Positions 56,393 through 61,860 of a stretch of 64,000 nt of DNA are shown here, piece by piece. The number at the start of each line of letters is the position of its first letter. The first letter of the stretch is position 1. Origin of the DNA: Escherichia coli (GTDB lineage: Bacteria; Pseudomonadota; Gammaproteobacteria; Enterobacterales; Enterobacteriaceae); the NCBI RefSeq assembly GCF_002854065.1, contig NZ_CP024147.1; one strand, given 5' to 3'. The translations under genes were made by a program, and so were the position numbers. Below the pieces are notes generated by a model that was not told where the DNA came from, did not search any database, and worked only from the letters and a program-made list of their open reading frames with translations.

Positions 56393-57511
56393 ATGAATAA
56401 CGAGGAAACATTTTACCAGGCCATGCGGCGTCAGGGCGTTACCCGGCGCAGCTTTCTCAAATATTGTAGTCTGGCTGCCACGTCGCTGGGATTAGGCGCG
56501 GGAATGGCACCAAAGATTGCCTGGGCGCTGGAGAACAAACCCCGCATTCCAGTGGTATGGATCCACGGTCTGGAATGCACCTGCTGTACCGAATCTTTTA
56601 TCCGCTCCGCTCACCCGCTGGCAAAGGACGTCATCCTTTCCCTGATTTCCCTCGATTACGACGATACTTTGATGGCTGCCGCCGGAACCCAGGCGGAAGA
56701 AGTCTTTGAAGACATCATCACGCATTACAATGGCAAATATATCCTCGCAGTAGAAGGTAATCCGCCGCTGGGCGAGCAGGGGATGTTCTGTATCAGCAGC
56801 GGTCGACCGTTTATTGAGAAACTCAAACGTGCCGCTGCCGGAGCCAGCGCGATTATCGCCTGGGGAACCTGTGCGTCCTGGGGCTGCGTGCAGGCCGCGC
56901 GACCTAATCCGACACAGGCAACGCCTATCGACAAAGTCATCACCGACAAACCCATTATCAAAGTACCTGGCTGCCCGCCGATCCCGGATGTGATGAGCGC
57001 CATCATTACTTACATGGTGACCTTTGATCGCTTGCCAGATGTCGACAGAATGGGTCGTCCACTGATGTTTTATGGTCAGCGTATCCACGATAAATGCTAT
57101 CGCCGCGCTCACTTCGACGCCGGAGAGTTCGTCCAGAGTTGGGATGATGACGCTGCCCGCAAAGGTTATTGCCTGTACAAAATGGGCTGCAAAGGGCCTA
57201 CCACCTATAACGCCTGTTCCTCCACACGCTGGAATGATGGCGTTTCTTTCCCAATCCAGTCTGGTCACGGCTGCCTGGGCTGTGCGGAAAATGGTTTCTG
57301 GGATCGCGGTTCGTTCTACAGCCGCGTGGTCGATATTCCACAAATGGGTACTCATTCCACCGCCGATACCGTCGGTTTAACCGCGCTTGGTGTGGTGGCA
57401 GCGGCTGTTGGTGTGCACGCAGTCGCCAGCGCCGTTGACCAGCGCAGACGTCATAATCAGCAACCTACAGAAACCGAACATCAGCCAGGCAATGAGGATA
57501 AACAGGCATGA
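56393..57511 (+). CDS. hyaA: Hydrogenase 1 small subunit HyaA, 372 aa, Tat signal
   Basis: ATG at 56393 gives [29 protein letters not shown] (twin-arginine motif); FeS-cluster Cys ligands. Confidence 0.95.
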
Positions 57512-59301
57512 GCACTCAGTACGAAACTCAGGGATACACCATCAATAATGCCGGACGCCGCCTGGTGGTCGACCCGATTACGCGCATTGAAGGCCACATG
57601 CGCTGCGAAGTGAATATTAACGATCAGAATGTAATCACCAATGCCGTCTCCTGCGGCACCATGTTTCGCGGGCTGGAGATCATCCTGCAAGGGCGCGACC
57701 CGCGCGATGCGTGGGCGTTCGTTGAACGTATCTGCGGCGTCTGTACTGGCGTACACGCTCTGGCTTCGGTTTACGCCATCGAAGATGCCATCGGTATTAA
57801 AGTGCCGGACAACGCCAATATCATCCGCAACATTATGCTGGCAACGCTCTGGTGCCACGATCATCTGGTGCACTTCTATCAGCTTGCCGGGATGGACTGG
57901 ATCGATGTGTTGGATGCGCTGAAAGCCGACCCGCGGAAAACCTCCGAACTGGCGCAAAGTCTCTCCTCTTGGCCGAAATCATCCCCTGGCTATTTCTTCG
58001 ACGTACAAAACCGCCTGAAGAAATTCGTTGAAGGCGGGCAGTTGGGGATCTTCCGCAATGGCTACTGGGGGCACCCGCAGTACAAGTTGCCGCCAGAAGC
58101 CAACCTGATGGGCTTTGCCCACTATCTCGAAGCTCTCGATTTCCAGCGTGAAATTGTCAAAATCCACGCGGTCTTTGGCGGTAAAAACCCGCATCCAAAC
58201 TGGATTGTCGGCGGGATGCCTTGCGCCATTAACATTGACGAAAGCGGCGCGGTCGGGGCGGTCAATATGGAACGCCTGAACCTGGTGCAGTCGATTATCA
58301 CCCGCACGGCAGACTTCATTAACAACGTGATGATCCCCGACGCCTTAGCCATCGGTCAGTTCAACAAACCGTGGAGCGAAATCGGCACGGGTCTTTCTGA
58401 TAAATGTGTCCTCAGCTACGGCGCATTCCCGGATATTGCCAACGACTTTGGCGAGAAAAGTCTGCTGATGCCTGGCGGCGCGGTGATTAACGGCGACTTC
58501 AACAATGTGCTGCCAGTGGATTTGGTTGATCCGCAGCAGGTGCAGGAGTTTGTCGACCACGCCTGGTATCGATATCCCAACGATCAGGTCGGGCGTCATC
58601 CGTTCGATGGCATCACCGACCCGTGGTACAACCCCGGCGATGTCAAAGGCAGCGATACCAACATTCAGCAGCTGAATGAACAGGAACGCTACTCGTGGAT
58701 CAAAGCGCCCCGCTGGCGCGGTAACGCGATGGAAGTGGGGCCGCTGGCACGCACGTTAATCGCTTATCACAAAGGCGATGCTGCGACCGTTGAGTCGGTC
58801 GATCGCATGATGTCGGCGTTGAACCTGCCGCTTTCCGGCATCCAGTCAACGTTAGGCCGCATTTTGTGTCGCGCGCACGAAGCACAGTGGGCCGCAGGTA
58901 AGTTGCAGTATTTCTTCAACAAGCTGATGACTAACCTGAAAAACGGCAATCTTGCCACCGCCTCCACGGAAAAATGGGAACCCACAACCTGGCCGACAGA
59001 GTGCCGTGGTGTCGGTTTTACCGAAGCGCCGCGCGGGGCGTTAGGCCACTGGGCCGCCATTCGCGATGGCAAGATTGATCTCTACCAGTGCGTGGTGCCG
59101 ACCACCTGGAACGCCAGCCCGCGCGATCCCAAAGGGCAGATTGGCGCTTATGAAGCGGCGCTGATGAACACCAAAATGGCGATCCCCGAGCAACCGCTGG
59201 AGATCCTGCGTACTCTGCACAGCTTTGATCCGTGCCTCGCCTGTTCAACACACGTGCTGGGCGACGACGGTAGCGAGCTGATCTCCGTGCAGGTGCGTTA
59301 A
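57508..59301 (+). CDS. hyaB: Hydrogenase 1 large subunit HyaB, 597 aa
   Basis: N-terminal RxCGxC and C-terminal DPCLAC NiFe-ligand motifs; ATGA overlap with hyaA. Confidence 0.96.
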
Positions 59302-59319
59302 CAGCGAAGGAGAATCATC

Positions 59320-60027
59320 ATGCAACAGAAAAGCGACAACGTTGTCAGCCACTATGTCTTTGAAGCGCCAGTGCGTATCTGGCACTGGCTGACGGTGTTA
59401 TGCATGGCGGTGTTGATGGTCACCGGTTACTTTATCGGCAAACCGCTACCTTCCGTCAGCGGCGAGGCGACGTATCTGTTCTATATGGGCTACATCAGGT
59501 TAATTCACTTCAGCGCCGGGATGGTTTTTACCGTGGTCTTGCTGATGCGGATCTACTGGGCTTTTGTTGGCAATCGATACTCCCGCGAGCTGTTTATCGT
59601 GCCAGTATGGCGTAAAAGCTGGTGGCAGGGCGTGTGGTATGAAATCCGCTGGTATCTGTTTCTGGCAAAACGTCCGAGTGCCGATATAGGCCATAACCCC
59701 ATCGCCCAGGCGGCGATGTTTGGCTATTTCCTGATGTCGGTCTTTATGATCATCACCGGCTTTGCGCTGTACAGCGAACACAGCCAGTACGCTATTTTTG
59801 CGCCGTTCCGTTATGTGGTGGAATTTTTCTACTGGACGGGAGGCAACTCAATGGACATTCACAGCTGGCATCGGCTGGGGATGTGGCTGATTGGCGCGTT
59901 TGTGATCGGTCATGTCTATATGGCGCTGCGTGAAGACATCATGTCCGACGACACGGTGATCTCCACCATGGTCAACGGCTACCGTAGCCACAAATTTGGC
60001 AAAATAAGTAACAAGGAGCGTTCATGA
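59320..60027 (+). CDS. hyaC: Hydrogenase 1 cytochrome b subunit HyaC, 235 aa
   Basis: Four-helix membrane b-type cytochrome; translation [23 protein letters not shown]... Confidence 0.93.
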
Positions 60028-60611
60028 GCGAGCAACGCGTGGTGGTCATGGGGCTGGGCAACCTGCTGTGGGCCGATGAAGGTTTCGGCGTGCGGGTGGC
60101 GGAACGGTTGTATGCCCATTACCACTGGCCCGAGTATGTGGAGATTGTCGATGGCGGTACTCAGGGACTGAACTTGCTGGGGTATGTCGAAAGCGCCAGC
60201 CATCTGTTGATTCTCGATGCCATTGACTACGGGCTGGAACCTGGAACGCTGCGAACCTATGCCGGAGAACGTATTCCGGCTTATCTCAGCGCGAAGAAAA
60301 TGAGCCTGCACCAGAACAGTTTCTCCGAAGTGCTGGCGCTGGCAGATATCCGCGGACATCTGCCAGCACATATTGCCCTCGTCGGTCTGCAACCCGCAAT
60401 GCTCGACGACTACGGCGGCAGCCTGAGCGAACTGGCACGGGAGCAACTGCCCGCAGCGGAACAGGCGGCGCTGGCGCAGCTGGCTGCATGGGGAATTGTG
60501 CCGCAACCGGCTAATGAATCGCGCTGTCTCAATTATGACTGTCTGTCGATGGAAAATTACGAAGGCGTTCGCTTGCGCCAGTACAGGATGACACTGGAGG
60601 AGCAGGGATGA
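60024..60611 (+). CDS. hyaD: Hydrogenase 1 maturation endopeptidase HyaD, 195 aa
   Basis: Translation [27 protein letters not shown]...; overlaps hyaC stop. Confidence 0.93.
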
Positions 60612-61006
60612 GCAACGACAAGCCATTTGATGCGTTGTGGCAACGAATGCTGGCGCGCGGCTGGACGCCGGTTAGTGAATTCCGTCTTGACGACTGGCTT
60701 ACGCAAGCGCCAGACGGCGTGGTGTTATTAAGCAGTGACCCGAAACGCACGCCAGAGGTCAGCGATAATCCGGTAATGATTGGCGAATTACTGCGCGAGT
60801 TTCCCGACTACACATGGCAGGTGGCGATTGCTGACCTTGAACAGAGCGAAGCCATCGGAGATCGCTTTGGCGTCTTTCGCTTTCCCGCCACATTAGTGTT
60901 TACCGGCGGAAACTATCGCGGCGTGCTGAATGGTATTCACCCGTGGGCGGAACTGATAAACCTGATGCGTGGGCTTGTCGAACCACAACAGGAGCGTGCC
61001 TCATGA
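60608..61006 (+). CDS. hyaE: Hydrogenase 1 operon protein HyaE, 132 aa
   Basis: Translation [25 protein letters not shown]...; overlaps hyaD stop. Confidence 0.9.
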
Positions 61007-61860
61007 GCGAAACTTTTTTCCATCTGCTGGGGCCAGGAACGCAACCGAACGATGACAGTTTCAGCATGAATCCACTGCCGATCACCTGTCAGGTGAATGA
61101 TGAACCGAGTATGGCAGCCCTGGAGCAATGTGCTCACAGCCCGCAGGTGATTGCGCTGTTAAACGAGTTACAACATAAACTAAGCGAACGCCAGCCGCCG
61201 TTGGGCGAGGTGCTGGCAGTCGATCTGTTAAATCTCAATGCCGACGATCGTCACTTTATCAATACGCTTCTCGGGGAAGGGGAAGTGTCAGTGCGCATTC
61301 AGCAGGCTGACGACAGTGAAAGTGAAATACAGGAGGCGATCTTCTGCGGATTATGGCGGGTGCGCAGACGTCGCGGCGAAAAGTTGCTGGAGGACAAACT
61401 GGAGGCTGGCTGCGCGCCGCTGGCGTTGTGGCAGGCGGCAACGCAAAATCTCTTGCCGACAGATTCGCTGTTACCGCCGCCCATTGATGGCCTGATGAAT
61501 GGCCTACCGTTGGCGCATGAGTTACTGGCGCATGTACGTAACCCCGACGCGCAGCCGCACAGCATTAATCTGACGCAATTACCCATCAGCGAGGCTGATC
61601 GGCTTTTTCTCTCACGTCTCTGTGGGCCGGGAAATATTCAGATTCGTACCATTGGCTATGGCGAGAGCTATATCAACGCCACGGGGTTACGCCATGTCTG
61701 GCATTTACGCTGTACGGACACCTTAAAAGGCCCTTTACTGGAAAGTTATGAAATCTGCCCAATACCGGAAGTGGTGCTGGCAGCGCCAGAAGATTTGGTC
61801 GACTCTGCGCAGCGGCTTAGCGAGGTATGTCAGTGGCTGGCGGAAGCTGCACCGACGTAA
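61003..61860 (+). CDS. hyaF: Hydrogenase 1 operon protein HyaF, 285 aa
   Basis: ATG at 61003 gives [18 protein letters not shown]...; ATGA overlap with hyaE; track start is 20 codons upstream. Confidence 0.9.

Follow-up and report, generated by a model that had tools for sequence, protein, structure and literature searches.

The 64,000-nucleotide stretch of Escherichia coli DNA analyzed here (contig NZ_CP024147.1 of assembly GCF_002854065.1; hereafter, the window) is a chromosomal segment that extends from mukFEB to hya-appCB, and positions 56393 to 61860 of it almost certainly represent the chromosomal hyaABCDEF operon, complete and, by prediction, functional. With the same near certainty, the predicted product of the operon is the membrane-bound, O2-tolerant, H2-oxidizing [NiFe]-hydrogenase 1 (Hyd-1). 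The locus is already known, a textbook operon that belongs to the E. coli core genome, and there is nothing new in its presence. An earlier note on this DNA had described a complete and intact hya operon followed by appCB, and this description is borne out by the gene coordinates, the protein families and the alignment with strain K-12.

The gene order, namely, small subunit, large subunit, cytochrome b, endopeptidase, HyaE and HyaF, was confirmed between serT and appC. The gene coordinates were transferred from the RefSeq annotations of K-12 MG1655 and of strain 100416, the closest available record (human stool, Gambia), and agree with the list of open reading frames (ORFs). All six products score above the curated cut-offs in Pfam and five of the six do so in NCBIfam; clear matches among solved structures were likewise obtained for five of the six, the match of HyaF being weak. 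The gene lengths, from hyaA to hyaF, are 1119, 1794, 708, 588, 399 and 858 nt, the same as in K-12 MG1655, and the start codons, stop codons and lengths of the six hya genes and appC are all identical to those of K-12 in a codon-level alignment. This comparison, which the earlier note had proposed as a check on intactness, yielded no frameshift and no premature or internal stop in any of these seven genes. The likeness to the K-12 MG1655 operon (b0972-b0977) extends to the four ATGA overlaps between genes, the 18-nt hyaB/hyaC and 133-nt hyaF-appC spacers, and the flanks, with serT upstream and appCB downstream; the two differ by 90 coding nucleotides, seven of which change an amino acid, without any structural difference.

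Over the span from hyaA to appC, the DNA identity to K-12 strains is 98.4% (97.0 to 99.3% for individual genes). Of the 90 codons that differ across the hya coding regions, 83 carry synonymous and 7 non-synonymous changes, the mark of working genes kept under purifying selection. The seven substitutions are Q111H in HyaA, D471N and A493T in HyaB, Q191L in HyaD, T5K and S25F in HyaE, and Q59K in HyaF; HyaC is identical to the K-12 protein. None of these substitutions falls on a ligand or motif that was checked. HyaE T5K results from an A/C single nucleotide polymorphism (SNP) at 60621 that is absent from both K-12 and strain 100416, and precedes the Pfam HyaE domain (residues 10-116).

The operon is nearly universal in the species, being present in 5418 of 5426 complete E. 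coli genomes. A megablast search with positions 56000-62500 of the window produced matches in 5425 of 5426 complete E. coli genomes, with at least 80% of the query covered in 5417, and the features under the matches are annotated hyaA to hyaF; strain 100416 differs by 3 SNPs in this region. In a sample of 40 genomes spread evenly down the ranking, from 100% to 97.1% identity, 39 show exactly 5601 bp between the starts of hyaA and appC, in one ungapped piece, the fortieth match being cut by the end of the record; therefore, the architecture is fixed across the species.

HyaA belongs to the small-subunit subfamily TIGR00391 (673.6 bits, cut-off 179.5) and contains the Pfam domains Oxidored_q6 and NiFe_hyd_SSU_C. 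The twin-arginine motif RRSFLKY, with which the earlier note had HyaA begin, is indeed found at residues 18-24; the consensus TRRSFLK occupies residues 17-23 (nucleotides 56441-56461), and an AWA cleavage motif lies at residues 43-45. The NCBIfam profile TIGR01409 (TAT_signal_seq), used in place of TatP or SignalP, scores 26.8 bits over residues 16-45, exceeding its curated cut-off (16.7). Residues 12-13 form another Arg-Arg pair (MRRQG), which is outside the context of a twin-arginine translocation (Tat) signal. The solved small chains of Hyd-1 (PDB 3uqy_S and others) align to HyaA residues 46-372; because the chains of the mature structures begin at residue 46, they independently mark a 45-residue signal peptide in the precursor. 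With the motif, a hydrophobic stretch and the AxA site all present, TatABC-dependent export of HyaA is predicted here; Tat-dependent export is known for Hyd-1 of K-12 (PMC3283652). Beyond the signal peptide, the C-terminal segment is the sole strongly hydrophobic stretch of HyaA: 19-residue windows with a Kyte-Doolittle mean above 1.4 begin only at residues 323-332.

Mature HyaA has cysteines at positions 17, 19, 20, 115, 120 and 149, which are the ligands of the O2-tolerant proximal [4Fe-3S] cluster; of these, Cys19 and Cys120 make up the supernumerary pair. The six-cysteine O2-tolerant proximal cluster of Hyd-1 was reportedly described by Lukey in 2011 and by Volbeda in 2012. The medial cluster ligands are Cys230, Cys249 and Cys252, and those of the distal cluster are His187, Cys190, Cys215 and Cys221. 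Possession of all six proximal cysteines places the enzyme in the O2-tolerant group 1d, and sustained oxidation of H2 under O2 is predicted.

The other subunits fit the same group. HyaB is recognized by the equivalog NF007550 (1441 bits, cut-off 1101) and contains the Ni-Fe ligand motifs with two CxxC pairs, one of the RxCGxCxxxH type at residues 74-83 and the other, DPCLACSTH, at residues 574-582. PDB chain 3uqy_L covers residues 1-582, and every solved Hyd-1 large chain stops at residue 582, which independently marks a 15-residue C-terminal propeptide in the HyaB precursor. The N- and C-terminal motifs and the cleavable extension are the attributes of a group 1d large subunit, as which HyaB is predicted to act. 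HyaC (NF007551, 537 bits, cut-off 442) aligns along its entire length (1-235) with PDB 4gd3_A, a cytochrome b chain, and is the dedicated b-type cytochrome membrane subunit that characterizes the group.

Among the maturation proteins, HyaD (NF007616, 442 bits, cut-off 261) matches HybD protease structures in PDB and is 39% identical to HybD, with E19, D65 and H96 aligned to E16, D62 and H93. The Glu, Asp and His of the HybD structure 1cfz, which is among the PDB matches of HyaD, are the metal-binding triad, which HyaD retains. HyaE is matched by NF008563 (282.6 bits, cut-off 210) and, in PDB, by 2hfd. HyaF shows two stretches of similarity to Pfam HupH_C (146.8 bits); no NCBIfam match was found for this protein, and its PDB match (3sb1) is weak. 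The exact roles of HyaD, HyaE and HyaF as maturation factors have been described as poorly understood (PMC10032307).

Among related systems is hydrogenase 2 (Hyd-2), encoded by hybOABCDEFG in E. coli itself, which, like hya, combines a small subunit that has a Tat signal, a [NiFe] large subunit bearing a C-terminal propeptide, and a dedicated endopeptidase as well as a chaperone. The hyb genes of K-12 are tightly packed as well, with junctions of +2, -11, -4, -1, -8, -8 and +12 nt. However, Hyd-2 is of the standard O2-sensitive type; it has an additional ferredoxin-like protein, HybA, and its membrane subunit, HybB, is a different one. When the window enzyme was considered as a candidate Hyd-2, HyaA scored 330 bits against an equivalog cut-off of 659 and HyaB scored 553 bits against 969; given that both are far under the Hyd-2 cut-offs, the enzyme is Hyd-1, not Hyd-2. 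Close structural relatives of HyaA and HyaB include Cupriavidus necator HoxKGZ and the enzymes of Hydrogenovibrio marinus and Salmonella (Hyd-5) (PDB 3rgw, 3ayx and 4c3o), which resemble Hyd-1 in the cysteine pattern of the proximal cluster and in having a cytochrome b partner. As orthologues or paralogues from other organisms, they come with larger accessory gene sets, whereas the window encodes the E. coli enzyme itself.

The junctions within the operon are as the earlier note had them, with 4-nt overlaps at hyaA/hyaB, hyaC/hyaD, hyaD/hyaE and hyaE/hyaF. Each reads ATGA (57508-57511, 60024-60027, 60608-60611 and 61003-61006, respectively), the downstream ATG and the upstream TGA having 4 nt in common. 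There is no overlap between hyaB and hyaC, which are separated by an 18-nt spacer, in agreement with the naming of only four junctions, and the measured distance from hyaF to appC equals the 133 bp given in the note. A Shine-Dalgarno-like motif precedes every start, 5-13 nt upstream of the annotated ATG; at the overlapped starts, these motifs (GAGG, AGGAG, GGAGG and AGGAG) lie inside the preceding gene. An ATGA overlap with a Shine-Dalgarno motif in the upstream gene is the usual arrangement for translational coupling, which is predicted for these gene pairs. The overlaps are real but not surprising: overlaps of 4 nt are the commonest class of gene overlap, and three further same-strand pairs in the window, ssuA/ssuD, ssuC/ssuB and pqiC/pqiB, show them as well.

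The spacer between serT and hyaA is 425 nt long, compared with 426 nt in K-12, from which it differs by 9 substitutions and a 1-nt deletion that shortens a run of C (CCCC to CCC) near 56135, about 50 bp upstream of the IscR site. The stretch 56185-56209 is reportedly the hya IscR site that was crystallised. The CCxYA left half-site is part of the definition of type II IscR sites (PMC8561392), and IscR, acting at a type II site in which the -35 element is embedded, occludes RNA polymerase and thereby represses the hyaA promoter (PMC8561392). ArcA activates hya through anti-repression of IscR (PMC3798270), YdeO activates both hyaABCDEF and appCBA (PMC4222967), and AppY has been found to bind the hyaA and appC promoter regions by chromatin immunoprecipitation sequencing (ChIP-seq) (PMC10057817); the AppY summit upstream of hyaA (MG1655 position 1031990; PMC10057817) maps to approximately 56244 in the window. 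A consensus sigma-70 scan detected no strong promoter on the plus strand of the serT-hyaA region, in keeping with an activator-dependent promoter. More generally, promoter and terminator scans gave no more hits than shuffled sequence did, and none of use for hya. The promoter-like site that scored best in the region, TTTACA-17-TATAGT (10/12 matches; 56008-55980, minus strand), is just upstream of serT and divergent from hya, and is the one plausible hit, the promoter of serT; serT itself is a tRNA-Ser gene on the minus strand (55883-55967; Rfam, 57.5 bits).

The way in which the encoded parts would work together is drawn from studies of K-12, the window itself attesting only to their presence. 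Transcription would begin upstream of hyaA, with IscR repressing in air and ArcA, AppY, YdeO and RpoS activating under anaerobic, acidic or stationary conditions. HyaB would receive the NiFe(CN)2CO cofactor from the Hyp proteins and then be cut by HyaD after His582, whereas HyaA would acquire its Fe-S (iron-sulfur) clusters with the aid of the chaperones HyaE, which would bind the signal peptide, and HyaF. The large subunit binds the Fe-S-loaded small subunit only after cofactor loading and C-terminal trimming by the specific endopeptidase, and the dimer is exported via Tat on the signal peptide of the small subunit and then joins the membrane anchor subunit (PMC3283652). In the present case, the folded HyaA-HyaB dimer would leave by the Tat translocon on the HyaA signal, with HyaB, which has no signal of its own, carried along, and would dock on the cytochrome b HyaC, which would pass electrons from H2 to the quinone pool. 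The neighboring appCB genes, which encode cytochrome bd-II, have their own AppY/YdeO-bound promoter in the hyaF-appC spacer. The positions of the genes and other features are set out in Table 1.

Table 1. Features of the hya region, in coordinates of the window
Feature	Position	Strand	Basis
serT-hyaA intergenic region with hya promoter and regulatory region	55968-56392	+	Comparison with K-12, AppY ChIP-seq
IscR type II-like operator, AAATCCACACAGTTTGTATTGTTTT	56185-56209	+	Identical to K-12, CCxYA left half-site
hyaA, hydrogenase-1 small (Fe-S) subunit precursor, 372 aa	56393-57511	+	ORF list, RefSeq annotation transfer, family matches
Tat signal peptide of HyaA, residues 1-45 (predicted)	56393-56527	+	TIGR01409, TRRSFLK motif, N-termini of structures
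C-terminal hydrophobic tail anchor of HyaA, approximately residues 326-350	57368-57442	+	Kyte-Doolittle
hyaB, hydrogenase-1 large ([NiFe]) subunit precursor, 597 aa	57508-59301	+	ORF list, annotation transfer, NF007550
C-terminal 15-residue propeptide of HyaB, removed on maturation	59254-59298	+	15 residues after His582
hyaC, b-type cytochrome membrane subunit, 235 aa	59320-60027	+	ORF list, annotation transfer, NF007551
hyaD, HyaB-specific maturation endopeptidase, 195 aa	60024-60611	+	ORF list, annotation transfer, NF007616
hyaE, thioredoxin-like chaperone, 132 aa	60608-61006	+	ORF list, annotation transfer, NF008563
hyaF, HupH-type hydrogenase expression/formation protein, 285 aa	61003-61860	+	ORF list, annotation transfer, Pfam HupH_C
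hyaF-appC spacer with appC promoter region, 133 nt	61861-61993	+	K-12 comparison, AppY ChIP summit
appC, cytochrome bd-II subunit 1, first gene of the neighboring app operon	61994-63538	+	NF011609 (1201.5 bits), annotation

No feature of the sequence speaks against an intact and functional operon, a reading that has these limits: its function is predicted from sequence identity, seven amino acids differ from K-12, a simple promoter scan fails to pick out the hya promoter, and the roles of HyaE and HyaF are still described as poorly understood (PMC10032307). The operon could be in frame and yet silent or impaired in the source strain, through the changes upstream or one of the amino acid replacements, given that 10 positions of the 425 nt upstream differ from K-12 and that the T5K change in HyaE is missing even from the closest strain. 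However, the IscR site and the surrounding 90 nt match K-12 save for one base near 56240, 398 records carry alleles of the same family (99% identity or more), and, because the 83:7 ratio points to continuing purifying selection and no checked ligand or motif is altered, silencing or impairment appears very improbable. Even less credence is due to the possibility that some of the genes start farther upstream than annotated, which would alter the geometry of the junctions. The mechanical ORF list does extend the frames of hyaA, hyaF and appC upstream (to TTG 56312, GTG 60943 and GTG 61988, respectively), but the family profiles align from residue 1 or 2 of the annotated starts, on which the K-12 and PGAP (Prokaryotic Genome Annotation Pipeline) annotations agree, and the Shine-Dalgarno-like motifs are placed appropriately for these starts. 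Moreover, a 27-residue extension ahead of HyaA would bury the n-region of the Tat signal, and the use of GTG 60943 would create a 64-nt overlap of hyaF with hyaE.

The relationship between the complete hya operon and appCB is the other question on which readings can differ. In physiological terms, hya and app make up a chain that leads from H2 through quinone to O2 (PMC4222967), and AppY and YdeO induce both units together. In the spacer between hyaF and appC, the scan, which covers intrinsic and not Rho-dependent termination, gave no terminator-like hairpin; the RNA of the spacer folds no more stably than shuffled sequences (z = -0.15). These observations favor meaningful transcription of hya and appCB as a single transcript, without an intrinsic terminator in between, but such an arrangement is unlikely: in the literature, hyaABCDEF and appCBA are two distinct transcription units, and a promoter of its own is bound for each; an appC-lacZ fusion responds independently (PMC4222967), and a summit of AppY binding (PMC10057817) maps to approximately 61949, within the spacer. 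The spacer shows no differences from K-12 in 133 positions, which is not significantly low because the overall divergence is only about 1.6%. Read-through from hya across this terminator-less, fully conserved spacer may account for a substantial part of appCB expression, a possibility that is, in our estimate, slightly less likely still; if this were true, hydrogenase 1 and cytochrome bd-II would be parts of one H2-to-O2 respiratory transcription unit, beyond being co-regulated neighbors.

Some further features of the region and the window were recorded. The appB gene starts at 63550 and runs past the end of the window. The G+C content is about 0.55-0.57 within hya (56500-61000) and 0.47-0.52 in the upstream flank, a mild difference. 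ORFs on the minus strand inside hya (56492-57355, 57481-57957 and 59979-60626) have no Pfam match and were rejected as genes. An Rfam scan of the whole window detected no RNA element in the hya region, the only matches being tRNA-Ser and the PyrD leader (RF02373, 97.9 bits; 28943-29016), an expected element upstream of pyrD.

Compared over its full length with strain 100416, the window shows 19 SNPs, one 1-nt indel and one 1331-bp insertion, so that identity of the two was rejected. The insertion is an IS2 element (22588-23918) in the fimbrial usher gene elfC; it encodes an InsC-like ORF of 136 aa and an InsD-like ORF of 301 aa, has the ends TAGACTGGCCCCC... and ...GGGGCAAATCCA, and is flanked by a 5-bp target duplication, CCATC (22583-22587 and 23919-23923). 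It splits elfC into 22123-22590 and 23882-26059 and is absent from strain 100416; at least 80% of a junction-spanning query is covered in 6 of 5426 genomes. The indel is one extra A at 25259 relative to strain 100416, in which elfC is annotated as frameshifted; because the downstream elfC frame is continuous in the window, the frameshift is specific to the 100416 record (or an error of its assembly), and it is IS2 that disrupts the gene here. The zapC gene (30195-30737) is intact in the window, encoding 180 aa without a stop; a G/T SNP at 30375 distinguishes it from the zapC of strain 100416, which the annotation gives as a pseudogene with an internal stop.

The significance of these results lies mainly in the quality of annotation, and no open question is advanced by them. 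For the organism, they confirm the presence of a complete hydrogenase-1 system in this strain, a core function of E. coli that has been associated in the literature with adaptation to anaerobiosis and acid in the gut.

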